Shown one piece after another: positions 3,287 to 57,104 of a stretch of 64,000 nucleotides of DNA. This DNA comes from Escherichia virus TH22. The notes below the pieces were generated by a model. The model searched no databases and was not told the origin of the DNA. It was given only the letters and a program-made list of their open reading frames with translations. The DNA lies in the sequence record MT446396.1. One strand, 5' to 3'. The translations under genes were made by a program, and so were the position numbers. The first letter of the stretch is position 1. Each line of letters opens with the position of its first letter.

Positions 3287-3344
3287 TGTGTACAACCAAA
3301 TGGGGCTATGACATAATGGTCCCACAATCAATGAGGAAAATATT
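3287..3344 (+). promoter_or_regulatory. early (sigma70-like) promoter plus leader
   Basis: GTGTACAA -35, 17-nt spacer, CATAAT -10, leader CAATGAGGAAAAT. Confidence 0.5.
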
Positions 3345-4031
3345 ATGAACGGTCCTAAAACTTTTAATAGTCAAGCTCGTGCAGTAGGTGGTTTTGCCGG
3401 CGGTATTTCTAATGATAAAATCAAGAACGAGCCTATGTTCTTCAACTGTAGTTTAGAATTTGCTTATAATAACGGCGGTCCTATTACTCGCAGCTTCATC
3501 ATGAACTTGCCAGATGATTGGAACACCGACCAGGTTGTATTTGATTCTCGGGTTCATATGCTGATGCCTGGTTGGTATCCTGCTATCCCAGGTTATCACC
3601 ATGACGATGTACCACGCCCGGATATTCCGGTTGGTCAACACTTTATTACTGCAGGGCAACCTGATTATGATAATCCTCGTTACCATTCTGAACATATTCT
3701 TGGTCTTGTTAACGCTGATGTGTGTCCTACTTATTTTGCAACCGGAACTGCACAATTTAGTCAGATTCCTGAAGGCGAACTTATCTATCGCCAGTGGCAT
3801 AAAGAAGTTCTGGAAAAAATTGAGTCCAATGAATTAACCAAGTGGGATGCTCCTGACCGCACGTTGCTCCAGTTTGATTGGCAGACATGGCATACAGGTT
3901 CTCGCGCAGTAAGTAACGGTTGGCGCTGGTTTGGTCGCGTGTCTCGTAATACCGACCGTGTTAAAAAGATTACAAATGAAATCCGCGTTAATGCTCAAGT
4001 ATATCTGGAATTCCCTATGGAGGGATGGTAA
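3345..4031 (+). CDS. hypothetical protein
   Basis: Early promoter (GTGTACAA -35, CATAAT -10) and SD upstream; 228 aa. Confidence 0.5.
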   Translation: MNGPKTFNSQARAVGGFAGGISNDKIKNEPMFFNCSLEFAYNNGGPITRSFIMNLPDDWNTDQVVFDSRVHMLMPGWYPAIPGYHHDDVPRPDIPVGQHFITAGQPDYDNPRYHSEHILGLVNADVCPTYFATGTAQFSQIPEGELIYRQWHKEVLEKIESNELTKWDAPDRTLLQFDWQTWHTGSRAVSNGWRWFGRVSRNTDRVKKITNEIRVNAQVYLEFPMEGW

Positions 4032-5808: not shown

Positions 5809-5864
5809 GTTTACATCTCCAAACGATAGGGTTATAATGACCCTATCAACTACGGAGAACAAAC
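5809..5864 (+). promoter_or_regulatory. early promoter with -10 inside inverted repeat, upstream of denV
   Basis: GTTTACA -35, TATAAT -10 within GATAGGG..CCCTATC, leader ATCAACTACGGAG. Confidence 0.55.
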
Positions 5865-6281
5865 ATGACTCGCATTAATTTAACCCTGGTATCTGAACTT
5901 GCTGACCAACACCTTATGGCTGAATACCGTGAGCTTCCTCGCGTGTTTGGTGCTGTTCGTAAGCATGTGCAAAATGGTAAAAAGGTGTCTGACTTTAAAA
6001 TCCCATCATCTTTTCTTTTAGGAACTGGTCATGTCACCTTCTTTTATGATAAGCTTTTGTTCCTTAAAAACCGTCATCAAGAACTTATTGCTGAATGTTT
6101 AAAGCGAGGGTTTAATATAAAAGATATTTCTACCCAAGATTTAAATGATATTCCTGATGAATGGAAGAATGATTATCAACCATCAATCTGGTCAATTGAA
6201 ATCAGTCAATCCAGACTGAATGAGAAAATTTCTCAAAAGCCTACCTGGTACAAATACTATGGGAAAGCTGTGTACGCTTAA
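5865..6281 (+). CDS. denV: endonuclease V (pyrimidine dimer DNA glycosylase)
   Basis: 138 aa; [35 protein letters not shown] near-identical to T4 endo V. Confidence 0.95.
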
Positions 6282-6329
6282 CTAAAAAGGTTGTATAATG
6301 ATTTTATCAACCAAACAATGGAATATAAA

Positions 6330-6644
6330 ATGAAAACTTATCAAGAATTTATTACTGAATCTACTCAACAACGTGTTGAAGGTGGTTATGTCTGGATTGA
6401 ACAGTTAACCCCACCAAGTGAAACAAGCACTGGTTCGTGGAAAATTACTGTTGATGGTCCTGGTGGAAAACGCAAGACTATTAAAGAAATTAAAGGTTAT
6501 TATGACGAAGCTAAATCATGGGCTGGTAGTCATGTAATGCAGATTAAAATTGCAAACCCAGATAACGTTCATGCGGCAAAAGCGTTCCGTCGCATTGGTA
6601 ATAAACTTTATGATGCGTTTTTGCGCGATTTCCCTAAAGCTTAA
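6330..6644 (+). CDS. internal protein with capsid-targeting sequence
   Basis: N-terminus MKTYQEFITES matches T4 IP capsid-targeting sequence MKTYQEFIAE; track ORF starts 39 nt earlier. Confidence 0.7.
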   Translation: MKTYQEFITESTQQRVEGGYVWIEQLTPPSETSTGSWKITVDGPGGKRKTIKEIKGYYDEAKSWAGSHVMQIKIANPDNVHAAKAFRRIGNKLYDAFLRDFPKA

Positions 6645-6657
6645 CTAAAGAGCCATT

Positions 6658-6921
6658 ATGAAAACTTATCAAGAATTTATTACTGAATCCGCTAAAGCTC
6701 CTGCTGGTTCCTTTAAAGTCCGCGCCTTCGCTGGTGATGCTGAAGACTTTGGTACCATGAAGCGCAATGGTTATTCTTTCTTTGGCGGCGATGGCAAAGA
6801 AATTGTTACCTATGCAAAACGCCGCGAAATCGCATTTGTGGTTGCTGGTAAGAAAGTTGATGTTGACGATATTGAATGGGACTTTGAGACCTTTGGTATT
6901 GTTTCTGGCGGTAAAGCGTAA
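6658..6921 (+). CDS. internal protein with capsid-targeting sequence
   Basis: N-terminus MKTYQEFITESAKA; cargo domain unrelated to the neighbouring IP. Confidence 0.75.
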   Translation: MKTYQEFITESAKAPAGSFKVRAFAGDAEDFGTMKRNGYSFFGGDGKEIVTYAKRREIAFVVAGKKVDVDDIEWDFETFGIVSGGKA

Positions 6922-8677: not shown

Positions 8678-8678
<1 letters not shown>

Positions 8679-8734
8679 TGTACAAGCAGGTTGAAATGAG
8701 TTATGATTATCCCATCAAACAAAAGGAGATAATC
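8678..8734 (+). promoter_or_regulatory. early promoter plus leader upstream of regB
   Basis: GTGTACAAG -35, TATGAT -10, leader CCCATCAAACAAAAGGAG. Confidence 0.5.
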
Positions 8735-9193
8735 ATGACTACTATCGATTCAAGTGTTTACATTCGCCGCAATAAACTTCGTCGTATTTTTGAAACGGAG
8801 TTCCTCAAAATTAATAATGCTATCAACAAGGCTTGTAAAGAAGCAGGTCTTGAAGCATTCTTCATTAAGTACAGTCCACACCTGTTGGACCGTGCAATCC
8901 AACGTGAAATTGACGAACAATATGTTTTTGACTTGTTTGGAAAAATCACACCACATGTAAAAGAAATCGTTGAATTCCTGGAGATGAAACCACTCCCGGA
9001 AGTTGAAGCACAAATTGACCCGAGTGTGAACTACCGTCCACTTCGTCTGGAAATCACAGACAAGAACCTATGGTTAGGAATGACAGTTAACCCAGCTCTT
9101 CCTGGGAAGTCTCCAACCATGTGTTGTCGTATGGCGTTTGTTAACTCTAATCGTCTTGAAGGAAAAATTAGCACAAAAGTGATTTATATCTAA
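8735..9193 (+). CDS. regB: RegB site-specific endoribonuclease
   Basis: VYIRRNKLRR...YSPHLLDRAIQREIDEQYVFDLF...LEITDKNLWLG aligns with T4 RegB; early promoter upstream. Confidence 0.9.
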   Translation: MTTIDSSVYIRRNKLRRIFETEFLKINNAINKACKEAGLEAFFIKYSPHLLDRAIQREIDEQYVFDLFGKITPHVKEIVEFLEMKPLPEVEAQIDPSVNYRPLRLEITDKNLWLGMTVNPALPGKSPTMCCRMAFVNSNRLEGKISTKVIYI

Positions 9194-11881: not shown

Positions 11882-12178
11882 ATGGACCTTATTCGAGGAC
11901 TTTCTCTAAGTCTATTACTAATGGGCTGTTTAGGCCCAAATCTGTCCTCTGCTACAGATGGTAAATTTACCCAGTACGCAGATAGTGCGATGCAAATCTA
12001 TTCGCAATTCAAAGAACCCAGCGTCGAGCAGTCCGAACAATTTTGGGCTTTTATTAAAACCGAATGGAACAATAAGAGTCAATGTGTAAATGAAATCACA
12101 TGTCAAATTGATGGCCGGGCTGCTGCAGTCGAATACGCTAAATTAATGAAGGTAAAATTGGAAGATGAAATTCGATGA
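11882..12178 (+). CDS. rI: lysis inhibition regulator RI (antiholin)
   Basis: VEQSEQFWAFIKTEWNNKSQC...AAAVEYAKLMKVKLE aligns with T4 RI; late promoter TATAAATA at 11803; start could be 11834 or 11858. Confidence 0.8.
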   Translation: MDLIRGLSLSLLLMGCLGPNLSSATDGKFTQYADSAMQIYSQFKEPSVEQSEQFWAFIKTEWNNKSQCVNEITCQIDGRAAAVEYAKLMKVKLEDEIR

Positions 12179-12548
12179 TTTCGTAACAGGTCGTGGGTCT
12201 GAGGTGGATTCATACATTGGGTGGCTATTAGTCTCTTTAGCATATTTTAAGTCCGCCCATCTTGAAACCAAAAGTTACGCCCGCCATAAAGCTTATGATT
12301 TCTACTTCACAGAAATCCAAGGTCCACTCGACCAGTTCAGTGAGCAATGGTTAGGTTACAGCGGGAAACAATACAAAGCTGCATTACCGTCCGCCTCGGA
12401 CTTGCCGAAAGATACAATTTTGTTTTTAGATGAAATGATTAAAAGCTCTGAAAGAGTCTATAAAGTTGTGCCCAAGGCTATTCAATCGACTCTGGACGAT
12501 ATCGTTGGCGTTTTCTTTCAAACCAAGTACCTGTTAACATTAGAGTAA
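12165..12548 (+). CDS. hypothetical protein
   Basis: ORF followed by UUCG-tetraloop terminator. Confidence 0.45.
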   Translation: MKFDDFVTGRGSEVDSYIGWLLVSLAYFKSAHLETKSYARHKAYDFYFTEIQGPLDQFSEQWLGYSGKQYKAALPSASDLPKDTILFLDEMIKSSERVYKVVPKAIQSTLDDIVGVFFQTKYLLTLE

Positions 12549-12552
12549 TTCA

Positions 12553-12586
12553 AAAGGTCTGCCTTCGGGTGGACCTTTTTTCATTT
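12553..12586 (+). terminator. rho-independent terminator (UUCG tetraloop)
   Basis: GGTCTGCC-TTCG-GGTGGACC stem then T-run. Confidence 0.6.
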
Positions 12587-12590
12587 AGGG

Positions 12591-12648
12591 GTTTACATCC
12601 TCATCAAAAGGGTGTACTATTATCCCATCAACTACTGAGGAGAATACA
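12591..12648 (+). promoter_or_regulatory. early promoter plus conserved leader
   Basis: GTTTACA -35, TACTAT -10, leader ATCAACTACTGAGGAG. Confidence 0.55.
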
Positions 12649-12852
12649 ATGAGAATTAAAAATATCAAGATTGATGCAGTTAATACTGGTGATGAGGTTG
12701 TTATCTATCTTAATGATTATGCAATCTTTATGGACAGTGCCACTGATGAAGAAGTGGTTGAACTCTTACAGAAAGCTCCATTTGAACTGTGTGAAGAAGA
12801 TGCTACCCATCTTTCATCAGCAATTTTCTCATTATCATATGTGGTGGAATAA
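12649..12852 (+). CDS. hypothetical protein
   Basis: Early promoter and conserved leader with SD GAGGAG upstream. Confidence 0.45.
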   Translation: MRIKNIKIDAVNTGDEVVIYLNDYAIFMDSATDEEVVELLQKAPFELCEEDATHLSSAIFSLSYVVE

Positions 12853-16106: not shown

Positions 16107-16174
16107 GTGTACAACAAGATGGTCATGAGGCATAATGATTCCATACTGAGTTACCAAATAAACTGGAGAATAAA
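16107..16174 (+). promoter_or_regulatory. early promoter plus CATACTGAGTTACCAAA leader
   Basis: GTGTACAA -35, CATAAT -10. Confidence 0.5.
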
Positions 16175-16381
16175 ATGTTAGAATTAATCAAAGCTGCTGG
16201 TGAAAAAGGTCTGATGGTTAACACTCGTGACCCTGAACAACGTCAAGCATTTGGTGAGTTAAAAGCCAAAGGTCTGGTTAAAGCATCCCTTGGTATTGGT
16301 AATGCTTTGCGTGTGACTTTGACCCCTGCAGGTAAAGCAATGTTCTTCCCTAAACCATTACCAAAACGTCGTCGCAAGTGA
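16175..16381 (+). CDS. hypothetical protein
   Basis: Terminator then early promoter with CATACTGAGTTACCAAA leader upstream. Confidence 0.45.
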   Translation: MLELIKAAGEKGLMVNTRDPEQRQAFGELKAKGLVKASLGIGNALRVTLTPAGKAMFFPKPLPKRRRK

Positions 16382-16692: not shown

Positions 16693-16760
16693 GTGTACAC
16701 AAGTATGGGAGCGTGGCATAATGTTCCTATACTGAGTTACCAAACAAACGGGAGAATAAA
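16693..16760 (+). promoter_or_regulatory. early promoter plus CATACTGAGTTACCAAA-type leader
   Basis: GTGTACAC -35, CATAAT -10, leader TATACTGAGTTACCAAA. Confidence 0.5.
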
Positions 16761-17285
16761 ATGGAAGCCAAATCAATCTTTAATCTGATTAATTACAATA
16801 ATGGTAATTTTAAATCAGAAGCACAAAGCAAGTTCTTTAATGATGTTGCTTGTGCAGGTGAGATTACAGTATCAGGTGGTCAAACTTATAAAAACGCCTG
16901 GAACTGGATTGTGACTGTTGATTCAGTTGGTATTGTTGATGTGTATAAAAACACTAACAAAAACCGCTCTTTGTTCTGGTCAAGAGAGACTAATGCTGAG
17001 TATCAAGCGGCAAGAGCAAAGAAAAATATGCCAACTGAATCTGATATCCAAAACATCAAATCAGATATCCAATATTATGATGGTCTGATTGCTGAACAAC
17101 AAGCAGTGCTTGATAAGTTCAATGAAATCAAAGCATGTAAAGAGATTCCTGAATTCATGCGGGAATCAGTTAATGAACAATACAATCTCACTTCAGAGCG
17201 TATTGAAACCTATACCAAACAAAGAGCAGAGCGCCAGGTACTCCTTCAGAAGTTTGAAGAGCGTTTAAAGACGGTTCTCGCATAA
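16761..17285 (+). CDS. hypothetical protein
   Basis: Early promoter with CATACTGAGTTACCAAA leader upstream. Confidence 0.45.
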   Translation: MEAKSIFNLINYNNGNFKSEAQSKFFNDVACAGEITVSGGQTYKNAWNWIVTVDSVGIVDVYKNTNKNRSLFWSRETNAEYQAARAKKNMPTESDIQNIKSDIQYYDGLIAEQQAVLDKFNEIKACKEIPEFMRESVNEQYNLTSERIETYTKQRAERQVLLQKFEERLKTVLA

Positions 17286-22889: not shown

Positions 22890-23363
22890 ATGTTGTTGAC
22901 TGGCAAATTATACAAAGAAGAAAAACAAAAACTTTATGATGCACAAGCTGGTAAGTGTCCAATTTGCCACCGTGATTTGGACTCCGATGTTCAGGCCAAC
23001 CATCTTGACCATGACCACGAATTGAACGGGCCAAAAGCTGGTAAGGTTCGCGGGTTACTATGCAATCTGTGCAATGGGACAGAAGGACAAATGAAGCATA
23101 AGTTCAGCCGTTCGGGTCTGAAAAGTCGCGATGTTGACTACCTGGAATGGTTAGAGAGTTTGCTTGTCTATCTGAAATCTGATTATACCGAAAACAATAT
23201 TCACCCCAATTTTGTAACAGACAAAGCCAAAGAGTTCGGTCGTCTGGGGAAAGAAGAAATGATTCGGGAAATGCTTTTGAATGGTATGACTTATAATGAA
23301 TCTGACACCAAAACACAATTAATGGCTTCATTTAAGAAGCAGCTTAGAAAGAGTTTAAAATGA
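22890..23363 (+). CDS. 49: endonuclease VII (Holliday junction resolvase)
   Basis: 157 aa; MLLTGKLYKEEKQKLYDAQAGKCPICHRDLDSDVQANHLDHDHELNGPKAGKVRGLLCNLCN near-identical to T4 gp49. Confidence 0.95.
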   Translation: MLLTGKLYKEEKQKLYDAQAGKCPICHRDLDSDVQANHLDHDHELNGPKAGKVRGLLCNLCNGTEGQMKHKFSRSGLKSRDVDYLEWLESLLVYLKSDYTENNIHPNFVTDKAKEFGRLGKEEMIREMLLNGMTYNESDTKTQLMASFKKQLRKSLK

Positions 23364-25177
23364 CAATTGAAAACGAAATTGAAGGATTGATTCATAAAAC
23401 TAATAAAGACCTTTTAAACGAGAATGCTAATAAAGATTCTCGTGTTTTTCCAACTCAACGGGACCTTATGGCTGGTATTGTATCTAAACACATTGCCAAA
23501 AATATGGTCGCGTCTTTTATTATGAAAGCACATGAAAGTGGAATTATTCATTTCCATGATATTGATTATTCCCCTGCTCTTCCATTTACTAATTGCTGTT
23601 TAGTAGATTTAAAAGGAATGCTTGAGAACGGATTTAAGCTTGGTAATGCACAGATTGAAACTCCTAAATCAATCGGTGTTGCTACTGCAATTATGGCACA
23701 AATTACTGCACAGGTTGCTTCTCACCAATATGGCGGAACGACTTTTGCTAATGTAGACAAAGTATTTTCTCCTTATGTTAAACGTACATACGCAAAACAT
23801 ATTGAAGATGCAGAAAAATGGCAAATCACTGATGCATTGAATTATGCCCAATCTAAAACAGAAAAAGACGTATACGATGCATTCCAAGCTTATGAATATG
23901 AAGTAAATACGCTCTTTAGTTCAAATGGGCAAACGCCTTTTGTGACAATTACGTTTGGCACGGGAACTGACTGGACTGAACGAATGATTCAGAAAGCAAT
24001 TCTGAAAAATCGTATCAAAGGTCTTGGTCGCGATGGGATAACTCCTATTTTCCCTAAACTTGTTATGTTCGTTGAAGAAGGTGTTAATCTTTATAAAGAC
24101 GACCCGAACTATGATATTAAGCAGCTTGCTCTAGAGTGTGCAAGCAAAAGAATGTATCCTGATATTATTTCAGCTAAGAACAATAAAGCTATCACTGGTT
24201 CATCTATTCCTGTTTCTCCAATGGGTTGCCGTAGTTTCTTGGGCGTATGGAAAGATTCGACTGGTAATGAAATTCTTGATGGACGTAATAATCTTGGTGT
24301 TGTAACACTGAATCTTCCTCGCATTGCGTTAGATTCTTATATTGGAACACAGTTCAATGAACAGAAATTTATCGAATTGTTCAATGAGCGAATGGATTTG
24401 TGTTTTGAAGCTTTGATGTGTAGAATTAGTTCTTTAAAAGGAGTTAAAGCGACTGTTGCTCCTATTCTTTACCAAGAAGGTGCATTCGGGGTTCGTCTTA
24501 AACCTGATGATGATATAATTGAGTTATTTAAAAACGGTAGAAGTTCAGTGTCTTTGGGATACATTGGTATTCACGAATTGAATATTCTTGCCGGTCGTGA
24601 TATTGGGCAAGAAATTTTAACTAAAATGAATGCTCGTCTTAAGCAGTGGACTGAAAGAACCGGTTTTGCTTTTAGTTTGTATTCTACACCTGCTGAAAAC
24701 CTTTGTTATCGCTTCTGTAAACTTGATACTGAAAAATATGGAAGTGTAAAAGATGTTACCGATAAAGGATGGTACACTAACAGTTTCCACGTTTCAGTAG
24801 AAGAAAATATTACTCCGTTTGAAAAGATTTCTCGCGAAGCCCCATATCATTTCATTGCGACAGGTGGTCACATTTCTTATGTTGAACTTCCTGATATGAA
24901 AAATAACTTAAAAGGTCTTGAGGCTGTATGGGATTATGCCGCGCAACATTTAGATTATTTTGGTGTTAATATGCCAGTAGATAAATGTTTTACGTGTGGA
25001 AGTACCCATGAAATGACTCCTACTGAAAACGGATTTGTTTGTTCTATTTGTGGAGAAACTGACCCTAAAAAGATGAACACAATAAGAAGAACTTGCGGTT
25101 ATTTGGGAAATCCGAACGAACGTGGATTTAATCTCGGCAAAAATAAAGAAATCATGCATAGGGTTAAACACCAATGA
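23360..25177 (+). CDS. nrdD: anaerobic ribonucleoside-triphosphate reductase
   Basis: 605 aa; C-terminal glycyl-radical region RTCGYLGNP; uninterrupted (no intron). Confidence 0.95.
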   Translation: MTIENEIEGLIHKTNKDLLNENANKDSRVFPTQRDLMAGIVSKHIAKNMVASFIMKAHESGIIHFHDIDYSPALPFTNCCLVDLKGMLENGFKLGNAQIETPKSIGVATAIMAQITAQVASHQYGGTTFANVDKVFSPYVKRTYAKHIEDAEKWQITDALNYAQSKTEKDVYDAFQAYEYEVNTLFSSNGQTPFVTITFGTGTDWTERMIQKAILKNRIKGLGRDGITPIFPKLVMFVEEGVNLYKDDPNYDIKQLALECASKRMYPDIISAKNNKAITGSSIPVSPMGCRSFLGVWKDSTGNEILDGRNNLGVVTLNLPRIALDSYIGTQFNEQKFIELFNERMDLCFEALMCRISSLKGVKATVAPILYQEGAFGVRLKPDDDIIELFKNGRSSVSLGYIGIHELNILAGRDIGQEILTKMNARLKQWTERTGFAFSLYSTPAENLCYRFCKLDTEKYGSVKDVTDKGWYTNSFHVSVEENITPFEKISREAPYHFIATGGHISYVELPDMKNNLKGLEAVWDYAAQHLDYFGVNMPVDKCFTCGSTHEMTPTENGFVCSICGETDPKKMNTIRRTCGYLGNPNERGFNLGKNKEIMHRVKHQ

Positions 25178-25644
25178 ATTATGATAGATTTTATCCTTGT
25201 GATTTTGTGAATGGCCCTGGATGCAGGGTCGTTCTTTTCGTTACAGGTTGTTTGCATAAATGTGAAGGGTGTTATAATAAATCAACATGGAATGCTAGAA
25301 ATGGGGTTCCATTCACTGGTGAAACACTAGAACAATTAATTGAATGTTTGAATAATGATTATATAGAAGGATTAACTATAACTGGAGGAGACCCTCTCTA
25401 TCCTGATAACCGAGATGTTATTCACTCTGTGGTTCAAACTGTTAAAAATCTTTATCCAAATAAAAGCATTTGGATGTGGACAGGATATAAGTTTGAAGAT
25501 ATTAAACAACTAGAAATGCTTAAATATGTTGATGTTATTATTGATGGGAAGTATGAGAAAAATCTTCCGACCAAAAAACTGTGGCGAGGGTCAGATAATC
25601 AGCGACTTTGGTCAAATACCGATGGGGTGTGGAAACATGATTAA
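25174..25644 (+). CDS. nrdG: anaerobic RNR activating protein (radical SAM)
   Basis: 156 aa; CxxxCxxC radical-SAM-type cluster (CLHKCEGC); ATGA overlap with nrdD. Confidence 0.95.
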   Translation: MNYDRFYPCDFVNGPGCRVVLFVTGCLHKCEGCYNKSTWNARNGVPFTGETLEQLIECLNNDYIEGLTITGGDPLYPDNRDVIHSVVQTVKNLYPNKSIWMWTGYKFEDIKQLEMLKYVDVIIDGKYEKNLPTKKLWRGSDNQRLWSNTDGVWKHD

Positions 25645-26568: not shown

Positions 26569-26635
26569 AAAGGGGTGTACAAGCCCCTTTGAACGGTGTA
26601 TCATTATCCCATCAACTACTGATGAGGAAAACAAA
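26567..26635 (+). promoter_or_regulatory. stem-loop carrying early promoter -35, plus conserved leader
   Basis: AAAGGGG-TGTACAAG-CCCCTTT hairpin with -35 in loop; leader ATCAACTACTGATGAGG. Confidence 0.5.
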
Positions 26636-26812
26636 ATGGTTATTGAAGATAAAGAAATTAAAGTCAACCAGTATTATTCAATCAACGGCAAAGCTGTTTT
26701 AGTAACTGAAATATCTAGCCTGGATGTGTGGTATACCATAATTGACCTTGGTATTAAAATGATTTGTGACCGTGGAGTGTTTTGTTCGATAGCTAAGGAA
26801 ATTAAATTATGA
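26636..26812 (+). CDS. hypothetical protein
   Basis: Early promoter and conserved leader upstream. Confidence 0.35.
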   Translation: MVIEDKEIKVNQYYSINGKAVLVTEISSLDVWYTIIDLGIKMICDRGVFCSIAKEIKL

Positions 26813-27498: not shown

Positions 27499-27696
27499 AT
27501 GAATCCTGAATCTAAATTATCACAGCGAATTGTTGAATCTCGTCGTCAGTTCTTTGAAAATATGATAGCTCAAGGTATTGATGATGAAGTTTTTCTGAAC
27601 TGGTTTTGGAATCTCTATTATTCAAAATGTGCAGGAACAATATTATTATCGGCCGCATTGATGTACGAAGGCTGGAAAGGCGCTAAAGCGCAGTAA
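27499..27696 (+). CDS. hypothetical protein
   Basis: Start overlaps upstream stop. Confidence 0.4.
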   Translation: MNPESKLSQRIVESRRQFFENMIAQGIDDEVFLNWFWNLYYSKCAGTILLSAALMYEGWKGAKAQ

Positions 27697-27768
27697 AAAC
27701 CAACGGGGTCATGGTATAATGACCCTAGGATAATAAAATTTTAATTTAATGAGACTGAGGAATATATC

Positions 27769-28095
27769 ATGACTGCATCTATCACTAACATCATCGCTAA
27801 TTTCGCATTTGCTAAAGTTAACACTCTGATGAAATCTGGTTTTGTTACTCCTGAGATTCTGGACCAGTGGGAAGGCGATGTACAGAAACTGATTATTGCA
27901 GAAGGTCAGACAATGGGCAAAGCGCGTATTCGTGAAAGCCTTGTCCAGTATATCCTGAATGAATTTGATGTAGTAGCGTTTGGTTTACCGCTTCTGCGTG
28001 AAAACAAAGAAGTTTCTGATAAAGCTATCAAGCGTATGAAGGCCCAGCGCAAGAAGGGGTTTGTTGACCTGAAAATTGTTAAGGGTGCGAAATGA
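27769..28095 (+). CDS. hypothetical protein
   Basis: Early promoter in inverted repeat GGGGTCATGGTATAATGACCC upstream. Confidence 0.45.
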   Translation: MTASITNIIANFAFAKVNTLMKSGFVTPEILDQWEGDVQKLIIAEGQTMGKARIRESLVQYILNEFDVVAFGLPLLRENKEVSDKAIKRMKAQRKKGFVDLKIVKGAK

Positions 28096-40014: not shown

Positions 40015-40086
40015 GTGTTTACAACGGCAAAGGATTGCCGTATGATTACTCCATCAACTACTGATGATTAAATTAAGGATATTAAA

Positions 40087-40329
40087 ATGGAAACATTAAT
40101 TGCAGGTACTGTTGTTCTTGGTGCTGGTTCTTTCTTCCTGGCTGCACTGGCATATTTTCTGCCGTGGATTATCGCGCTACTGCGAGGAACCAAAAGTAAT
40201 TGCGGAATCTTCTTTGTTAACCTCCTGTTAGGTTGGACAATGGTCGGGTGGTTTATTGCATTTATCTGGGCACTCGTTGCTGAACGTAAATCAAACGCAC
40301 AAGTAATTATCATCAAGGAAACCAAATGA
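40087..40329 (+). CDS. imm: superinfection immunity protein Imm-like
   Basis: 80-aa two-TM protein with LLGWTMVGWFIAFIWAL segment; directly downstream of gene 43 as in T4. Confidence 0.7.
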   Translation: METLIAGTVVLGAGSFFLAALAYFLPWIIALLRGTKSNCGIFFVNLLLGWTMVGWFIAFIWALVAERKSNAQVIIIKETK

Positions 40330-44005: not shown

Positions 44006-44014
44006 AATATTTTA

Positions 44015-44038
44015 AAAGGGGCTTACGGCCCCTTTTTC
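44015..44038 (+). terminator. rho-independent terminator after gene 41
   Basis: AAAGGGGC-TTAC-GGCCCCTTT then TTCTT. Confidence 0.65.
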
Positions 44039-44076
44039 TTATGTTATAATGACCCTATCAACTACTGGAGAATAAA

Positions 44077-44394
44077 ATGAAAACTATTGATTGCAAGGCG
44101 GAATACAAAGTTTATTATCATGGCTCAAGCTCTAATGCTGGAATCCAAAATATGCTTTGCCCTCCTGATGCAACTGGTGTTCTGTCAGAAGTTGGGCGTA
44201 AGAAAAATTTAGGGCGTGTGTTTTTTACTGAAGATATTGGTTTGGCGCGTATCTATGCAGGAAGAGCAGCTCGCTCATATGGAGGAGAACCCCGTCTTTA
44301 TCGTGTGATTGCACCTGTTGACGTGGTTTGTTTAAATGATACTAAAGGCGCAACCGTTTATCACGCCGCCTGGGCCTTCTGTGAGGAAATCTAA
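44077..44394 (+). CDS. hypothetical protein
   Basis: Terminator, promoter and conserved leader upstream. Confidence 0.45.
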   Translation: MKTIDCKAEYKVYYHGSSSNAGIQNMLCPPDATGVLSEVGRKKNLGRVFFTEDIGLARIYAGRAARSYGGEPRLYRVIAPVDVVCLNDTKGATVYHAAWAFCEEI

Positions 44395-44598: not shown

Positions 44599-44838
44599 AT
44601 GAATATCACATTAATGAAACCTACCCCTAGTTCTTTTTGGAATAAATCTTTTGGTAAGCATAATATGTTTATCCAACGCACCGTAAGCAGCTGGGAACTA
44701 GTTCTTTCGGAAGACCATGGCGGTTATGAACAAGAATACGTAGAGTTCTTCGAATTTCCTGTGAAACCTACCAAGCGTCAGATTCGTCAGACAAAACGCA
44801 AATTCCGTAAAATTTATCTGGAAGATGCATTAAAATAG
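44599..44838 (+). CDS. hypothetical protein (RPTK-x-IRQ tail family)
   Basis: C-terminal KPTKRQIRQTKRKFRK. Confidence 0.45.
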   Translation: MNITLMKPTPSSFWNKSFGKHNMFIQRTVSSWELVLSEDHGGYEQEYVEFFEFPVKPTKRQIRQTKRKFRKIYLEDALK

Positions 44839-44895
44839 TGTACAACAAAGGGATAATGCTGTATATTATCCATATCAACTACTGAGGAGATTGAA
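44838..44895 (+). promoter_or_regulatory. early promoter plus conserved leader upstream of sp
   Basis: GTGTACAAC -35, TATATT -10, leader ATCAACTACTGAGGAG. Confidence 0.5.
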
Positions 44896-45189
44896 ATGAA
44901 AAAGTTATTAATCGCGGCAATTCTTACCGTAGCATCATGTGGTACAGCTCCAGTTACTGCTGGACTTGATAAAAACCTTTGTGAGTGGTCTATGACTGCG
45001 GACCAAACTGATGTTGAAACTCAAATTCGCGCTGACATCATGAATATTACTAAACGTGACCGCCCTGATATGGTTAAAGAAGTATCTGACCAATTGACTT
45101 CTGGTGACGTTATGCAGTATAACTATGTTCTGTATTGCGATGCTTCATTTGACAATAGCAAAATTGTTCAATGGGTTACAGGTGAATAA
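44896..45189 (+). CDS. sp: Spackle periplasmic protein
   Basis: 97 aa with signal peptide; DKNLCEWSMTADQTDVETQIRADIMNITKRDRP...VMQYNYVLYCD matches T4 Sp. Confidence 0.85.
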   Translation: MKKLLIAAILTVASCGTAPVTAGLDKNLCEWSMTADQTDVETQIRADIMNITKRDRPDMVKEVSDQLTSGDVMQYNYVLYCDASFDNSKIVQWVTGE

Positions 45190-45190
45190 A

Positions 45191-45628
45191 ATGATTAACA
45201 GAAATTTGGTTATCAAAAAACTTCGTTGTAAAAATCCAAATGCGCAGGCATACAGGGTGTTTTGGAGCGACGAAATTCAATATCTGGGTTATTTTCTTGT
45301 TGATAGTGATGATAGAATTACGTTTGCTCATAAACTTCTTAACAAAGAATTAAACCATTGGAAAGAACTTATTGCAGTCAAGTCTAAATTATTTTCGCGC
45401 AATACAATGCACCAATTGGTTTATTTTTTCGCTGATGGTATTCCTGACAAGGTTGAGTTTGAAGGGTTTGAATTTAAAGACATCAACCCTGACAATGAAT
45501 TGAATGACAGTATTGTTAATATGGGTATCCCTGGCAAGTACATCAAAAACAGTCTTTTGAAAATTCTGGAAAATCCTGTTTATTCAGTTGACGACCAGAT
45601 TTTTAATGCCTTCATGAAGCGAGATTAG
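45191..45628 (+). CDS. hypothetical protein
   Basis: ATG 45191; C-terminal 11 aa DDQIFNAFMKR identical to next gene. Confidence 0.45.
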   Translation: MINRNLVIKKLRCKNPNAQAYRVFWSDEIQYLGYFLVDSDDRITFAHKLLNKELNHWKELIAVKSKLFSRNTMHQLVYFFADGIPDKVEFEGFEFKDINPDNELNDSIVNMGIPGKYIKNSLLKILENPVYSVDDQIFNAFMKRD

Positions 45629-45629
45629 T

Positions 45630-45989
45630 ATGAGTTATTATAATTTTCTGAATTTTGAACTGGTGAGCAATAATAATGGTAATGCTCACTATGAATTTCG
45701 TGAGCCCCGTTATAATCAGGCGATTGGTTATATCATCGTTAAAGATGGTGTTATCATAAAGGCTCGTTCGTTTATGACAATGAATGGGCCTTGTGAAGAT
45801 AATCGTGGTTATCCATTTGATAAAAAGAACGTACGCGATTGTGCAGTATGGATAACCGGAAACCCTGAAATTGGGGTCATGATATCTACTGAAGCAAATG
45901 ACATTCTGGAAGGGGCTTGGGTTAAAGCTCAAGAACCGCCTACTGATATTGATGACCAGATTTTTAATGCCTTCATGAAGCGAGGTTAA
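45630..45989 (+). CDS. hypothetical protein
   Basis: C-terminal DDQIFNAFMKRG, identical tail to upstream gene. Confidence 0.45.
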   Translation: MSYYNFLNFELVSNNNGNAHYEFREPRYNQAIGYIIVKDGVIIKARSFMTMNGPCEDNRGYPFDKKNVRDCAVWITGNPEIGVMISTEANDILEGAWVKAQEPPTDIDDQIFNAFMKRG

Positions 45990-45990
45990 T

Positions 45991-46212
45991 ATGTTTGTTT
46001 TGACCCAATTCTCTAAAGCAATATATAGTTACTCTTGTCAGTGGGAAGTCTTTATTGATACTCCGTCTCCCAAGTATGGAGTTTTTGGACGAGTAACTAC
46101 TCAAGCTTATGTTGCACGACCGACCAAACGTCAGATTCGTAAACTTAAAAAGGCACATCGTCAATTGATTAAAAGAAGGGAACAATATGAGTGCAATGTG
46201 TACGGGCTCTAA
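45991..46212 (+). CDS. hypothetical protein (RPTK-x-IRQ tail family)
   Basis: C-terminal RPTKRQIRKLKKAHRQLIKRR. Confidence 0.4.
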   Translation: MFVLTQFSKAIYSYSCQWEVFIDTPSPKYGVFGRVTTQAYVARPTKRQIRKLKKAHRQLIKRREQYECNVYGL

Positions 46213-48852: not shown

Positions 48853-48897
48853 TTTAATAGAAGCGGTATAATTATTTCAATTACAGAGGAGAATACT

Positions 48898-50733: not shown

Positions 50734-51294
50734 ATGAACATCATCAAATCTGATACCGAACCCAACCAGTTAAAATTTAGTGAAATGGAGATAGCTTCAT
50801 TATTTGAATGCCGTACATCAAAGGTTGATAAGACCTTGCATTCAAATGTCAACTCAATCATCAAGTCAAGGTTGTCTATACCCGATACAGTCTTGTGGCG
50901 CGGGGTAACCCAGCAAGAGATTGATTTGTTAGATGAAGCAAAAGAATCAATGCAACCTTTTGAATTTGGACGGATAACCTCCTTTACAGAAGACTATGGT
51001 ATTGCCAGGGATTTTGCTGCAATGGAATATGTGACTAGGACTATCGTCAGATTGAATCAGACCAAAGCTTTTTGTTACCATGATGCGATGCGCAAAATCG
51101 CACTTGATGTTCCACTTGAATTCTTCAATACAGCTTCTGGTTCCGCACGGGCAGCTACATTAAGGCGTGAAGAATACATGGACATGATTGATTCCGAGCT
51201 TGAATGGTTTGTTCCAGTTGACCAGAAATTCGTGGTAGTTGATGCTGGATTTATTGATGATTATTATGTTCTTGACTGTGTACAAGAGCAATAA
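50734..51294 (+). CDS. ADP-ribosyltransferase, ModA/ModB family
   Basis: R-S-E signature: LWRG, SFTEDYGIARDFA (STS-like), ELEWFVP (ExE-like). Confidence 0.55.
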   Translation: MNIIKSDTEPNQLKFSEMEIASLFECRTSKVDKTLHSNVNSIIKSRLSIPDTVLWRGVTQQEIDLLDEAKESMQPFEFGRITSFTEDYGIARDFAAMEYVTRTIVRLNQTKAFCYHDAMRKIALDVPLEFFNTASGSARAATLRREEYMDMIDSELEWFVPVDQKFVVVDAGFIDDYYVLDCVQEQ

Positions 51295-51338
51295 GACACG
51301 TTAAGATGTTCCTATCAACTACTGATGAGGATAATAAA

Positions 51339-51953
51339 ATGCTGTACACTGATGACGTTTTGAATGGAATTATTGACACTGCCGCTTCTAGTGAGTCTTT
51401 TCGTAACCAATGCCAAGCGGAGATTGATGCTCTTTATACAGATAATGAGCAATCAGTACTCTGGCAGTGTATGGAAAATAAACCTGACCTGATTCAAGAA
51501 GACTTGTCCAGGATTATCCGCAACAATCTGAATACTGCACCACCCCCGGCGTTGTTCCGTGGTATATCAAAGAAAACTATGGAATACCTGGAAGATTTAA
51601 GATATGTTGGTGCAACGATTGAATTCAATCGTGTAATGAGTTTTTCCAGGGACTGGCAGGTTGCAAGAAATTTCGCATCATACAGTTTCTATGGAACAAG
51701 GAATATTTTCTGCATAAACAATGCACCATATGCGTATAACTATCAGGAAGCAATCTTCAAAATGATTTGTGGTGCTCCTCCTGAAGAGTTCAATGGTGCA
51801 TATCCAGAAGCAACCAGGAAGTCAAACTTGCACCTGGTTAATGATGAAGATGAGTTTATGTTTCCCGCTGGGACTACGCTCCGCGTAGACTTGATTGAAA
51901 CACACCCATTGAATAACCTGTATACTGTTTGGCATTTGACTGTTTTGAACTAA
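51339..51953 (+). CDS. ADP-ribosyltransferase, ModA/ModB family
   Basis: LFRG, SFSRDWQVARNFA, EDEFMFP; paralog of upstream gene. Confidence 0.55.
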   Translation: MLYTDDVLNGIIDTAASSESFRNQCQAEIDALYTDNEQSVLWQCMENKPDLIQEDLSRIIRNNLNTAPPPALFRGISKKTMEYLEDLRYVGATIEFNRVMSFSRDWQVARNFASYSFYGTRNIFCINNAPYAYNYQEAIFKMICGAPPEEFNGAYPEATRKSNLHLVNDEDEFMFPAGTTLRVDLIETHPLNNLYTVWHLTVLN

Positions 51954-52088
51954 CCAAAGACCTTAGAACCATTATACACAGTAAAAATAAAAGCGTTAAA
52001 GGCGAAAAAGTGGTGTACATGAAAGATGAACGGTGTATAATAATTTCATACTGAGTTACCAAATCGTCCGTAAGATGAGAAAAATATC

Positions 52089-52835
52089 ATGACTTTATCA
52101 AAAACCAAAACGCTGAAAGTTAAACGTCGCCTGGAACACACTCAAGCTTCTGCTAAACGTCGTGGCAAGGACTTTAACCTGGATTTCAATTACCTGGTTA
52201 ACATTCTTGACCAAAAAGTTTGTGCTTATTCTGGTGAAACATTTAATAACTCTATTGAAGGTGAGAAGTTATCATTAGAGCGTTTTAACAATGACATTGG
52301 TTATATCAAAGGTAATGTTATTCCTGTTAAAAAGAAATACAACACCATGCGTTCTGATTGGTCCCTGGATGAGCTTAAACAACGTCGTGATGATGTTGCT
52401 GTAAAAATTGCTCGTCCATCTGTCAAGAAGATTGAAAAGTTAAATCTGACTGCAGAGAAATGGGAACAGATTAAAAAGTCATATACCCATATCAAGAACA
52501 TCCAACACAAACGTGAGAATCGCGTTAAGCATTATGCTCAAATGAGTAAATCAGAGCAGTCCAAAGAAAACCAATTAAAAATGGTTGCTCTGAAGGCTCG
52601 CATTGATGGTTCCCGTATTGCGGAAGGTCATGAGCTTACTAAATTGAACGTCTTGCTCAAAGGTAATGACTGGAAAGTTACCAAGAAATTAACTAATGCT
52701 GAAACGCTTTTTGATTGCTATGATAAAATCATTCAAGGTCTTGAGCGTTTTGAGAAGATTGGTTTTATTGGTAAATTAAAACTGAAACGTGGTCTGCCTT
52801 TGAACGCGTCAATTTTTAAACTGATTAGAGGTTAA
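52089..52835 (+). CDS. hypothetical protein with degenerate HNH-like motif (Srd position)
   Basis: CAYSGETF...LSLERFNNDIGYIKGNVIPVKKKYNTMRSD resembles an HNH pattern with Cys/His replaced. Confidence 0.45.
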   Translation: MTLSKTKTLKVKRRLEHTQASAKRRGKDFNLDFNYLVNILDQKVCAYSGETFNNSIEGEKLSLERFNNDIGYIKGNVIPVKKKYNTMRSDWSLDELKQRRDDVAVKIARPSVKKIEKLNLTAEKWEQIKKSYTHIKNIQHKRENRVKHYAQMSKSEQSKENQLKMVALKARIDGSRIAEGHELTKLNVLLKGNDWKVTKKLTNAETLFDCYDKIIQGLERFEKIGFIGKLKLKRGLPLNASIFKLIRG

Positions 52836-53136: not shown

Positions 53137-54461
53137 TTAAATTTGAAGACTTGAACACAGGACAAAAAGAAGCTTTTGATTATATTACTGAAGCTATTCA
53201 GCGACGTTCAGGGGAATGTATCACTCTGAATGGTCCAGCTGGCACAGGTAAGACCACTCTGACAAAATTTGTCATTGACCACTTAGTGCGTAATGGAGTT
53301 ATGGGAATTGTGCTTGCTGCACCAACTCACCAGGCGAAAAAAGTTTTATCTAAATTGTCTGGTCAAACAGCGAATACAATCCATAGTATCTTGAAGATTA
53401 ACCCAACGACATATGAAGACCAAAACGTTTTTGAACAGCGCGAAATGCCTGACATGTCAAAATGCAATGTTCTGGTTTGTGATGAAGCAAGTATGTATGA
53501 CGGGTCTCTGTTTAAGATTATTCTTAACTCTGTTCCTGAATGGTGCACTATTCTTGGAATTGGTGATATGCACCAGCTGCAGCCAGTTGACCCGGGAAGC
53601 ACACAGCAAAAGATAAGCCCGTTCTTTACGCATCCTAAGTTCAAACAGATTCATCTGACTGAGGTCATGCGAAGCAATGCTCCTATCATTGAAGTGGCGA
53701 CAGAAATTCGCAATGGCGGCTGGTTCCGTGACTGTATGTATGAAGGTCATGGCGTGCAAGGTTTCACCTCACAAACCGCTTTAAAGGATTTCATGGTAAA
53801 CTATTTCAGTATTGTAAAAGATGCTGATATGTTGATGGAAAACAGGATGTATGCATACACGAATAAATCAGTTGAAAAACTGAACAATATTATTCGTCGC
53901 AAGCTCTATGAAACGGATAAAGCATTTTTACCGTATGAAGTCCTGGTTATGCAAGAGCCGCACATGAAAGAGCTGGAATTTGAAGGTAAGAAATTCAGCG
54001 AAACCATTTTTAATAATGGTCAGTTGGTTCGCATCAAGGATTGCAAATACACTTCCACTATTCTCCGCTGTAAAGGCGAATCGCACCAGTTAGTGATTAA
54101 TTACTGGGACCTGGAAGTTGAGTCAATTGATGAAGATGAAGAATATCAGGTTGACCGCATCAAAGTTTTACCAGAAGACCAGCAACCAAAATTCCAGGCA
54201 TATCTGGCGAAAGTTGCTGACACATACAAACAGATGAAAGCCGCTGGTAAACGTCCAGAGTGGAAAGACTTCTGGAAAGCGCGCAGGACCTTCTTGAAAG
54301 TCCGTGCTCTTCCGGTCAGTACAATCCACAAGGCCCAAGGCGTTTCAGTGGACAAAGCATTCATCTATACTCCATGCATCCATATGGCCGAAGCTTCATT
54401 AGCGAGCCAGTTGGCTTATGTTGGAATCACACGAGCGAGGTACGACGCATATTATGTATAA
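53133..54461 (+). CDS. dda: DNA helicase Dda (SF1B)
   Basis: Walker A GPAGTGKTT, LAAPTHQAKKVLSKLSG, C-terminal YVGITRARYD; matches T4 Dda. Confidence 0.95.
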   Translation: MIKFEDLNTGQKEAFDYITEAIQRRSGECITLNGPAGTGKTTLTKFVIDHLVRNGVMGIVLAAPTHQAKKVLSKLSGQTANTIHSILKINPTTYEDQNVFEQREMPDMSKCNVLVCDEASMYDGSLFKIILNSVPEWCTILGIGDMHQLQPVDPGSTQQKISPFFTHPKFKQIHLTEVMRSNAPIIEVATEIRNGGWFRDCMYEGHGVQGFTSQTALKDFMVNYFSIVKDADMLMENRMYAYTNKSVEKLNNIIRRKLYETDKAFLPYEVLVMQEPHMKELEFEGKKFSETIFNNGQLVRIKDCKYTSTILRCKGESHQLVINYWDLEVESIDEDEEYQVDRIKVLPEDQQPKFQAYLAKVADTYKQMKAAGKRPEWKDFWKARRTFLKVRALPVSTIHKAQGVSVDKAFIYTPCIHMAEASLASQLAYVGITRARYDAYYV

Positions 54462-54699
54462 AGTACATAAAGAAGATTTAGATAATCTTATCTATGGTAT
54501 TCAGGACGCGGTTGAATTTTTCGAAGATAATCCGACTATCGTCGTGCAGGGTAATTACGTTTTGCTGGAACTGAATCTTATTCGGAAACGTATGGCCGCG
54601 ATTGAATATTTTAACAATGAAGAGCCAGGGATTTTTATCTCCGACTATGTTGCTGGTGAAATTCAGAAATTAAAAGAGATGTGCGATGGTTGCTGGTGA
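54454..54699 (+). CDS. hypothetical protein
   Basis: C-terminus altered by 40-bp tandem duplication at 54649-54728. Confidence 0.4.
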   Translation: MYKVHKEDLDNLIYGIQDAVEFFEDNPTIVVQGNYVLLELNLIRKRMAAIEYFNNEEPGIFISDYVAGEIQKLKEMCDGCW

Positions 54700-54728
54700 A
54701 ATTCAAAAATTAAAAGAGATGTGCGATG
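54649..54728 (+). repeat. 40-bp tandem direct duplication (2 copies, 1 mismatch)
   Basis: GTTGCTGGTGAAATTCA(G/A)AAATTAAAAGAGATGTGCGATG twice in tandem; second copy ends in dexA ATG. Confidence 0.85.
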
Positions 54729-55415: not shown

Positions 55416-55476
55416 GTGTACAAGGCCAATGGAAAGAGACATAATCATCTCATCAACTACTGATGAGGATAACAAA
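55416..55476 (+). promoter_or_regulatory. early promoter plus conserved leader
   Basis: GTGTACAAG -35, CATAAT -10, leader ATCAACTACTGATGAGG. Confidence 0.5.
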
Positions 55477-55734
55477 ATGATTACTTCTTTTGAAATTGGC
55501 CAACAATATGAAATGTCTGCTCTTCAAGCTGCTGAAGCAGGTCTGACTGAAGCGTTTGAATGTGCATTTACAAATATTCGTGGTAAAATCTTTACTGTCA
55601 ATAAAATTGCGGTATATGATAAAGAAACAGACATGAACAAAGGCATCTACCTGAACGTGTCAAACGCCAAAGGTCGTCGTGAAATTATGGTTGTACAACC
55701 TAATCAACTGGCGATGTTCAATAAGGTTGCATAA
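55477..55734 (+). CDS. hypothetical protein
   Basis: Early promoter and conserved leader upstream. Confidence 0.4.
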   Translation: MITSFEIGQQYEMSALQAAEAGLTEAFECAFTNIRGKIFTVNKIAVYDKETDMNKGIYLNVSNAKGRREIMVVQPNQLAMFNKVA

Positions 55735-56492: not shown

Positions 56493-56564
56493 GTGTACAA
56501 ACTCTTGGGGTCAGAGTATAATGACCCCACTGGAGAATAAACTTATTAACCAAGAGAGAAAATT
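56493..56564 (+). promoter_or_regulatory. early promoter with -10 inside perfect inverted repeat
   Basis: GTGTACAA -35; GGGGTCA-GAGTATAA-TGACCCC. Confidence 0.5.
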
Positions 56565-57056
56565 ATGAAAGTTGAAGCTGGTGATATTGTACGTGTTTCT
56601 AAAGAATCTCGTTCTAAAGCTGCTGGTCGTTTTGTTGAGGTTGTGGGTCTTCGCACTAATTTAGTAGGTGGAATTAAAGAAGTTAAAGTGCGTATTATTC
56701 CTAAAAATGGTCAGACTGAAACTCAATTGGCTTATGTGCATCCTAAATTCCTGGAATCAACCGAATTTACTGGGTACATCGCTCCTGTGACCGAAGAAGT
56801 TGAAACCATTGACCAGTCTCATGTTGGGGTTGATTTTAAATGGAAATTGGGCAAAGGTGTCTTTTTTGTTTCACCTAAACCGTTTGAATATGTTGACGAA
56901 CCTTTTGGTACTTATGAAACCACTAGCATGTCTGGTTACATCACAGACCAGTGGGTTGAAGAAGGCGTTAAGCTCTATAACATTGTGTTCCTTGGAACCT
57001 TTAAGGTGGTTCCTGAAAGCTTTATCGTTGAGTATGCTGATATTCATCGTGCCTAA
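56565..57056 (+). CDS. hypothetical protein (paralog of 55734..56486)
   Basis: C-terminal GYITDQWVEEGVKLYNIVFLGTFKVVP. Confidence 0.45.
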   Translation: MKVEAGDIVRVSKESRSKAAGRFVEVVGLRTNLVGGIKEVKVRIIPKNGQTETQLAYVHPKFLESTEFTGYIAPVTEEVETIDQSHVGVDFKWKLGKGVFFVSPKPFEYVDEPFGTYETTSMSGYITDQWVEEGVKLYNIVFLGTFKVVPESFIVEYADIHRA

Positions 57057-57104
57057 ATTATAAAAATGATAGGGTAATTTTGCCCTATCAATGAGGAGAA
57101 TATT

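Follow-up and report, generated by a model that had tools for sequence, protein, structure and literature searches.

Positions 12591 to 12651 on the + strand of the 64,000-nucleotide stretch of Escherichia virus TH22 analyzed here (record MT446396.1; hereafter the window) hold a T4-type early promoter followed by a short conserved leader, a Shine-Dalgarno (SD) sequence, and an ATG. We consider it likely, with a probability of about 75%, that this element belongs to a multi-copy set of T4-type immediate-early expression cassettes of the promoter early stem-loop (PeSL) kind, acting by the mechanism proposed below. PeSLs and T4 early promoters are a known kind of element, hitherto undescribed in the present lineage; the leader, strongly conserved and occurring in discrete families, is an under-appreciated feature of such cassettes, and its mechanistic role is one that we infer.

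A search of the window with the motif ATCAACTACTGAKGAG gave six matches at no more than two mismatches (0.07 expected) and nine at no more than three (0.97 expected). None of 100 shuffled windows reached these counts at either threshold, and every match is located on the + strand. The clean leaders of this type (family A) begin at 5845, 12627, 26611, 40053, 44057, 44874, 51314, and 55452, and two or three degenerate ones are also present. An earlier note, made from the sequence alone, had proposed that at least eight genes are preceded by the same module; motif search and alignment bear this out, with eight clean copies on the + strand in a single register. Six of the leader starts that it gave are correct and two (51315 and 55453) are off by one, and among its variants that at 8711 is the regB promoter, with its true start at 8714, but those at 3329 and 57083 belong to another family of translation initiation regions (TIRs), ATCAATGAGGARAATATTATG. 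A repeat finder run without prompting recovered the same families as D1 (5 copies, 77 nt), D2 (7 copies, 51 nt) and D4, and the cassette at 26566 is 79% identical over 77 nt to the 55407/55416 region.

The order of elements is the same in every copy: a GT(G/T)TAC -35 box, an 18-nt gap, a TAnnnT -10 box, a 6-nt pyrimidine-rich discriminator, the leader starting ATCAAC, the SD, and the ATG. Written as GT(G/T)TACA, the -35 is separated from the TAnnnT -10 by a 17-bp spacer; the exception in sequence is GCTTAC at 44021. The region 5' of the -35 box is A-rich, the leader starts exactly 7 nt past the -10 box in 8/8 copies, and all have an SD and ATG, 5–9 nt apart, giving predicted 5' untranslated regions (UTRs) of 20–34 nt. 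GTGTAC is the majority -35 variant, found at 13 of the 19 early promoters in the window, with GTTTAC in the minority. The palindromic GTGTACA form (e.g. at 26575, 44838, 51278, and 55416) stands in place of the GTTTACA of T4, and is a variant particular to this lineage, more distant from the TTGACA consensus. The cassettes lie on the early strand before orthologues of the T4 early genes denV, imm, sp, modA, 55.6, and regB. Together with the T4-type -35 and -10 boxes and the A-rich upstream region, this upholds at the sequence level the earlier view of these elements as early promoters.

Mean pairwise identity among the eight copies is 0.33 for the 20 nt upstream, 0.86 for the -35 hexamer, 0.38 for the 18-nt spacer, 0.71 for the -10 hexamer, 0.49 for the discriminator, 0.87 for the 16-nt leader, and 0.44 for the following 16 nt. 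The leader is thus conserved to the same degree as the -35 box, while the spacer is at random identity. Because spacers and upstream flanks are at random identity and the leader is not, the copies are not recent whole-cassette duplicates, and duplication was rejected as the source of the similarity. Predicted +1 positions were placed by the -10 spacing rule, and since the block sets in 7 nt past the -10, its first base being an A (+1) preceded by a pyrimidine, it is predicted to form the 5' end of the transcript. The exact motif string has no match in the phage literature searched, where only unrelated primers match it. The early-promoter logos of Nolan et al. (2006) stop at the start site, remarking only on C at -3 to -1 (PMC1524935), and a review by Hinton (2010) says, without going further, that T4 early promoters have 'additional regions of consensus' (PMC2988021). 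The conserved transcribed leader of such cassettes has apparently so far gone undescribed. The earlier note had also overlooked the onset of the block at the predicted +1, its age and its sharing with T4, Dhakavirus and other lineages, the second leader family, and the copy at 6306.

Distribution of the leader, stem-loops and gene exchange

The window is of the Gaprivervirus type (Tevenvirinae), with the 4 kb around the type cassette 95.8% identical to vB_EcoM_VR25 and ∼95% identical to VR7. Leaders in VR7 and at related loci were scanned for by Hamming distance. A combined promoter and TIR scan of the complete VR7 genome yields ∼47 early-strand sites, with three spurious ones on the other strand. 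The family-A leader follows ∼20 of the 47 early promoters and a second, family-B start (gattcc-ATACTGAGTTAC) follows ∼10, such that about two-thirds use one of two stereotyped starts; smaller groups begin ACTGGAG or ACACCAAC. Families A and B have the heptamer TACTGAG in common. At no more than two mismatches the 12-mer core has 30 matches on the early strand of VR7 and 10 on the opposite strand, and promoter-linked matches are confined to the early strand. The leader is found upstream of 10/31 promoter-proximal genes, 2/132 promoter-less early-strand genes, and 0/57 late-strand genes (Fisher p = 8e-7).

T4 itself has versions of the leader at imm.1 (ATCAACTACTGAT), sp (ATAAACTACTGAGGAG), and motB.2 (ATAGCTACTGAGGA). 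As a search with the single Sp protein gave only seven close relatives, wider comparisons used 45 diverse loci anchored on gp41 (61–99% identity). Among these, family A is frequent in three genera (Gaprivervirus, Dhakavirus, and Tequatrovirus) and in two further lineages, and elsewhere sparse or absent; family B is restricted to the Gaprivervirus type. At the orthologous sp promoter the leader is kept in Gaprivervirus, Dhakavirus, and Tequatrovirus despite unrelated -35/-10 spacers, and is missing only from loci whose Sp is no more than 48% identical. In RB49, the original PeSL phage, PeSL transcripts have a predicted start of ATC(G/A)A, with an A/C-rich leader and then a stereotyped GGAGAATCAAAATG behind it. 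In IMG/VR the exact 15-mer turned up mainly as single chance matches in unrelated contigs, and several copies were present together only in ∼170-kb VR-type contigs. The motif is therefore present, not absent, in VR7, T4 and other relatives, and these sequence comparisons indicate that the leader is old and retained, common to T4, Dhakavirus, and other lineages.

Of the 19 early promoters in the window, 10 are overlapped by a perfect hairpin of 6 bp or more, as compared to 15% of shuffles. Its position varies, lying around the -10 (5809, 44838, 56493), around the -35 (26575, 44021), or in the spacer (40017), and the cassettes at 51278 and 55416 are without one. The arm sequences differ among cassettes, and among lineages at one locus. 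All four inverted repeats listed in the earlier note are present, at 5825-5847 and 56506-56529 (each enclosing a -10), 27705-27726, and 57068-57090. We note that the third of these (within 27693-27775) contains an extended -10 (TGGTATAAT) and is followed by GGATAATAAAA, and that the fourth (GATAGGG/CCCTATC) is just 5' of the cef TIR; neither has a GTKTAC -35, and they could represent middle-mode cassettes or degraded ('half') ones.

Close relatives carry different genes at some of these sites. The cassette following gene 41 is an isolated 74-bp homology island relative to VR25 and VR26, whose genes differ on both sides; the window and VR20 share the downstream context, where VR25 and VR26 have different genes, and relatives have an extra gene of ∼420 bp upstream. 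At sp, four close relatives each have a different upstream gene, and the shared sequence sets in at the -35 box. Overall, 5 of the 22 synteny breakpoints relative to VR7 touch a cassette, compared to ∼1–2 expected at random, or ∼3 if breakpoints fall at gene boundaries. The comparison of flanking genes proposed in the earlier note therefore gives clear replacements after gene 41 and before sp, but an overall association with insertions and deletions (indels) that is modest. Its suggested resemblance to PeSLs holds, with a multi-copy composite motif, hairpins at about half of the promoters, a 3' SD and ATG, and cassette-only homology at two loci (VR20/VR25/VR26).

Proposed role of the leader and alternative explanations

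We propose that host sigma70 RNA polymerase would fire from these promoters immediately after infection, starting at the A of ATCAAC, 7 nt past the -10, and that the ATCAACTACTGA block would be the mRNA 5' end and initial transcribed sequence. The block would fix the start point and aid escape from very tightly bound promoters. It would also provide a G-poor unstructured 5'UTR that keeps the ribosome site open, allowing burst expression of small host-takeover genes. RegB, made behind its own variant cassette, would later cut GG^A(G/U) where the A-rich 3' context is proper, ending translation. Because the same module of roughly 45–75 bp is found before many unrelated genes, it would supply homology through which recombination could swap flanking genes between related phages. 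We thus infer that the leader is an optimised start and initial transcribed region doubling as an unstructured 5'UTR, and it probably also serves as recombination homology. The strict linkage to promoters speaks for a block that works in transcription initiation or via the RNA 5' end, or that is passed on with the promoter as one unit, and against a free-standing enhancer of translation. Taken together with 11 codons, the predicted 5'UTRs show little structure (dG -1 to -5 kcal/mol), in 8/8 cases less than dinucleotide shuffles (mean z = +0.90), in keeping with an open ribosome site and with single-stranded RegB sites. On inspection, an NAD-capping consensus fits the block poorly, and so does dyad symmetry.

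Several points weigh against this proposal. The leader is not purine-rich, although some studies tie a purine-rich start to efficient escape; the escape argument is therefore generic and leaves retention of the exact sequence unexplained. Roughly every second early promoter of the same genome does without a family-A leader. The +1 position follows from spacing rules, and promoter activity and RegB cuts are predictions from sequence. The link between cassettes and breakpoints is weak once gene boundaries are taken as the null.

The part that RegB would play can be judged site by site. As noted previously from the sequence, regB is encoded in the window (8735-9193, +, 152 aa); the protein matches phrog_1323 (E = 1.2e-71), in agreement with the VR7 annotation. 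The strong RegB site is GG*AGRAYARAA; cutting at GGAU demands a strict A-rich tail, and GGAA is a poor substrate (PMC1702504, PMC3014915). Position 9 may not be C, and the sequence 5' of the GGAG is neither required nor conserved (PMC1702504). The SD-to-ATG 11-mers, which abut the ATG, score 10–11/11 against GGAKRAYARAA at the best sites and 9/11 at 44886. The tetramer is GGAG at 5854, 12639, 44067, and 44886, GGAT at 40077, 51329, and 55467, and GGAA, which lacks the G or U at position 4, at 26626 and 6320. The A-rich heptamer RAYARAA is fully matched at 44067, 51329, 55467, 16165, and 16751; the sites at 12639 (C at 9), 40077 (T at 6), and 44886 (T at 6 and G at 8) depart from it. We therefore predict a perfect site at 44067 (GGAGAATAAAA) and good ones at 51329 and 55467; of these, GGATAATAAAA at 51329 agrees in all 11 positions with the motB.2 site of T4, and only two GGAU sites, motB.2 among them, are cut in vivo (PMC1702504); GGAUAAUAAAA is the same 11-mer, and GGATAACAAAA at 55467 fits the consensus. 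Cutting is predicted to be intermediate at 5854 (GGAGAACAAAC; 10/11, C at position 11), uncertain at 44886 (GGAGATTGAAA), and poor at the type copy (12639, GGAGAATACAA), at 26626, and at 40077 (GGATATTAAAA). The suggestion that the SD GGAG is a potential RegB site thus stands insofar as the 11-mers fit GGA(G/U)RAYARAA, but good cutting is predicted only at 44067, 51329, and 55467. From this fit to the published rules, a role for RegB is plausible at some of the cassettes, by way of their 3' part, and the conserved 5' block is left unexplained.

Among other explanations, one that we hold as a tentative possibility is that the leader is conserved mainly as a crossover core for cassette exchange, as in the PeSL mini-circle model, with the block homogenised and the spacers traveling with neighboring genes. 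Only cassettes retaining the common block of 12–20 nt would then participate. Arbiol et al. found RB49 mini-circle crossovers between the -10 and the SD/ATG, the same place as the leader block (PMC2839356), and the post-gene-41 cassette is identical from the -10 to ATGAAAAC in the window, VR25, and VR26 despite their differing flanking genes. Family-B copies share the non-consensus CATAAT and gattcc along with the leader, suggesting common descent of the 3' half of the cassette, and the similarity of the 26566 and 55407 cassettes over 77 nt fits with exchange. However, the sp junctions among relatives lie on the upstream/-35 side, outside the leader, the breakpoint enrichment at cassettes is modest, and simple purifying selection suffices to account for a leader kept at orthologous loci across three genera. 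A crossover core is in any case compatible with an optimised start region and does not exclude it.

It seems unlikely that the +1 to +12 block (AUCAACUACUGA) and its sister AUACUGAGUUAC, which share UACUGAG, are a cis-element read by a phage or host factor, be it a DNA operator, a sigma-dependent pause site, or an RNA 5' tag marking the immediate-early regulon, for example for shut-off. Such a reader would fit the fixed position relative to the -10, the strict promoter linkage, a conservation equal to that of the -35 box, and the existence of two discrete families sharing TACTGAG rather than a loose compositional bias, and the mechanism of T4 early-promoter shut-off is stated to be unknown (PMC3014915). 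No candidate factor is known, however, the data require no trans-acting reader, the block lacks dyad symmetry, neither leader is present at about a third to a half of early promoters, and clean copies in T4 are few.

We regard as very doubtful a role as a translational enhancer independent of transcription, whether through 16S rRNA pairing or as a landing site for ribosomal protein S1. The leader is G-poor, predicted to be single-stranded, and directly 5' of the SD, and extra 5' sequence stimulates the RegB/S1 reaction, albeit non-specifically; yet the same authors saw no conservation 5' of GGAG among RegB substrates (Durand et al., PMC1702504). The motif is nearly absent from the TIRs of the 132 promoter-less early-strand genes and the 57 late-strand genes, which is not the behavior of a purely translational element. 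Pairing of the epsilon-enhancer type was rejected, since RNAduplex comparison with E. coli rrsH gave energies no better than shuffles for both leader families; for family A against E. coli 16S the value is -8.3 kcal/mol, the shuffle mean is -9.5, and 79% of shuffles are equal or better. Finally, although composition is generally A-rich and the loose RegB 11-mer alone is ∼2-fold enriched in the window (16 observed, 9 expected from mononucleotide shuffles), chance or an AT-rich compositional artefact can be dismissed from the match counts, the single strand, the single promoter register, and the promoter-linked VR7 matches on the early strand only.

The present copies extend PeSL-type early promoter cassettes to Gaprivervirus and identify as their best-conserved part the first 12–16 bases of the predicted transcript, which are left out of published logos and PeSL descriptions. 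The leader is a testable cis-element, relevant to output tuning of the strongest promoters, to RegB-inactivated early mRNAs, and to sites of accessory-gene exchange. The cassette is a compact natural promoter/5'UTR module and could improve annotation of early transcription units in Tevenvirinae genomes.

Individual cassettes and genome setting

In the type cassette the -35 GTTTAC is at 12591-12596, the -10 TACTAT at 12615-12620, and the discriminator TATCCC at 12621-12626, with the predicted +1 A at 12627, the leader at 12627-12638, the SD/RegB-type 11-mer at 12639-12649, and the ATG at 12649. It precedes a gene for a 67-aa MobD.5-like protein (phrog_3024). Directly 5' of it (12552..12586, +) a terminator-like hairpin with a T-run ends gene 12165-12548, which relatives label as a 'starvation-inducible transcriptional regulator' or DksA/TraR-like, PHROGs concurring (phrog_858); the DksA-like identity is unsupported, as Pfam returns DUF5856 only.

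The other family-A cassettes are also on the + strand. That before denV (5809..5867) has its +1 at 5845 and ATG at 5865, and a hairpin (GATAGGGT/ACCCTATC, 5825-5847) that includes the -10 box. A degenerate copy at 6270..6332 (ATCAACCAAAC, +1 6306) precedes an internal-protein-type gene (MKTYQEF..., ATG 6330). The first 39 nt of this gene (6330-6368), encoding MKTYQEFITES, are shared with its neighbor (6658-6696), a start that we take to be an N-terminus of the type that targets internal proteins to the capsid; in VR7 two genes of this type are behind near-identical family-A cassettes (VR7 68517 and 68184). The variant cassette that is regB's own promoter (8678..8737, ATCAAACAAAAGGAG) has its +1 at 8714 (ATCAAACAAAAGGAGATAATCATG), and its SD contains GGAG. 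Before the 55.6-like gene (26569..26638) the +1 is at 26611, GGAAAACAAAA at 26626, and the ATG at 26636, and the -35 box is inside a hairpin (AAAGGGG/CCCCTTT, 26569-26590). The imm cassette, directly after gene 43 (40017..40089), has its +1 at 40053, the 11-mer at 40077, and the ATG at 40087, with the hairpin ACGGCAA/TTGCCGT in the -35/-10 spacer.

The cassette directly after gene 41 (44014..44079) has its +1 at 44057, the perfect RegB/S1 11-mer at 44067, and the ATG at 44077, and a terminator-like hairpin (AAAAGGGGC/GCCCCTTTT, 44014-44036) surrounds its -35 box GCTTAC. Before sp (spackle; 44838..44898) the +1 is at 44874 and the ATG at 44896, and the hairpin GGATAAT/ATTATCC overlaps the -10. 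The modA cassette (51278..51341) has its +1 at 51314 and ATG at 51339, with the 11-mer at 51329. That at 55416..55479 (+1 55452, 11-mer 55467, ATG 55477) precedes a gene for an 85-aa protein (phrog_17795) at the T4 motB.2 position. A weak extra copy is at 48876.

Three family-B cassettes were identified, all on the + strand. That at 16107..16177 has a CATAAT -10, a gattcc discriminator, its +1 at 16143 (ATACTGAGTTACCAAA...), GGAGAATAAAA at 16165, and its ATG at 16175; the second (16693..16763) has its +1 at 16729, GGAGAATAAAA at 16751, and its ATG at 16761. The third, before srd (52013..52091), has a 17-nt gap, its +1 near 52048 (ATACTGAGTTACCAAATCGTCCG...), and its ATG at 52089, and contains no RegB-type site. 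Family B (CATAAT-gattcc-ATACTGAGTTACC...) has a longer UTR, ending in GGAGAATAAAATG at both 16-kb copies, and a -10-like CATACT at -1 to +5, where sigma70-dependent promoter-proximal pause elements lie. The motB early cassette (56493..56567, +) has the -10 in the loop of a hairpin (TGGGGTCA/TGACCCCA, 56506-56529), the leader ACTGGAGAATAAAC, and its ATG at 56565; a RegB-type GGAGAATAAAC is found at leader +4, 30 nt 5' of the ATG and outside the SD. The third, small TIR family ATCAATGAGGARAATATTATG (repeat finder D6/D16) is near-identical at 2307-2331, 3326-3350, and 57086-57110, with a clear early promoter only before the 3326 copy and none recognisable at 57083.

All long open reading frames (ORFs) of the window are on the + strand, and by the VR7 annotation it spans the early region from the tk/vs/regB/denV area to rIIA. 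Rfam has no family match anywhere in it. A segment of ∼2.4 kb at 23360-25644 encodes nrdD (605 aa; PF13597, E = 3e-170) and nrdG (156 aa), and VR7 is without it at the corresponding site. Between ORF 54418-54699 and dexA, a 40-nt unit is duplicated in tandem at 54649-54728 (98% identical, in perfect register). A 45-nt direct repeat (93% identical) is located at 45588-45632 and 45949-45993, at the 3' ends of two neighboring small genes that both end in an overlapping stop/start (TAGTATG or TAATATG), which suggests that they are tandem paralogues.

Comparison with known promoters and cassettes

Sequence 3' of +1 controls abortive cycling and escape at very strong promoters. The initial transcribed sequences of strong coliphage early promoters, T7 A1 (ATCGAGAGGG), lambda PL (ATCAGCAGG), and T5 N25 (ATAAATTTGAGAG), resemble the leader in an AU(C/A) start and a GAG-rich stretch within about 10–16 nt. 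They differ in being single promoters, whereas here 12–16 nt are repeated near-exactly at many promoters and across genera.

Likeness to the RegB/S1 system lies in the perfect GGAGAATAAAA at 44067, 16165, and 16751, and in the GGAG in regB's own SD, as in T4. In contrast, ATCAACTACTGA is conserved 5' of the GGAG, where Durand et al. saw neither requirement nor conservation (PMC1702504), and several copies, including the type copy, deviate at unfavorable positions (C at 9, GGAA).

The cassettes share with T4 early promoters, which have been called 'uber' UP/-35/TGn/-10 promoters (PMC2988021), the GTTTAC-type -35, the TAnnnT -10, and an A-rich upstream element (PMC2988021, PMC1524935), and with RB69, RB49, and 44RR promoters a C-rich -3 to -1 (PMC1524935). 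They have the -35 at -36 to -31 and are oriented with the early genes, before orthologues of T4 early genes, and the VR7 late strand is without a promoter-associated copy; T4 has the same leader at three of its own early loci. However, the published definition of the T4 early promoter contains no transcribed consensus, and the VR7-type leader is far more uniform and frequent (∼20/47) than that of T4 (3/12 in 50 kb).

The closest parallel is with PeSLs, defined as composites that join a stem-loop, often set between or over the promoter boxes or just 5' of them, with an A/T-rich region, the -35 and -10 boxes, the SD, and the ATG; they are associated with gene indels and can recombine into mini-circles (PMC2839356, PMC4122927). 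The cassettes described here are likewise multi-copy intergenic modules with an A/T-rich upstream region, sigma70-type boxes 17 bp apart, a stem-loop, and a 3' SD and ATG, located before small accessory genes and, at some loci, where close relatives have other genes, and the PST/T4 T-even promoter TTTACW-N17-TAYWAT fits the copies here. They differ in that the -35 is mostly the palindromic GTGTACA, that a clear hairpin is found at only about half of the promoters, and that the indel association is modest, with mini-circles known from RB49. Moreover, published PeSLs have no stated conserved sequence between the -10 and the SD, whereas here this is the best-conserved part and occurs in two discrete families.

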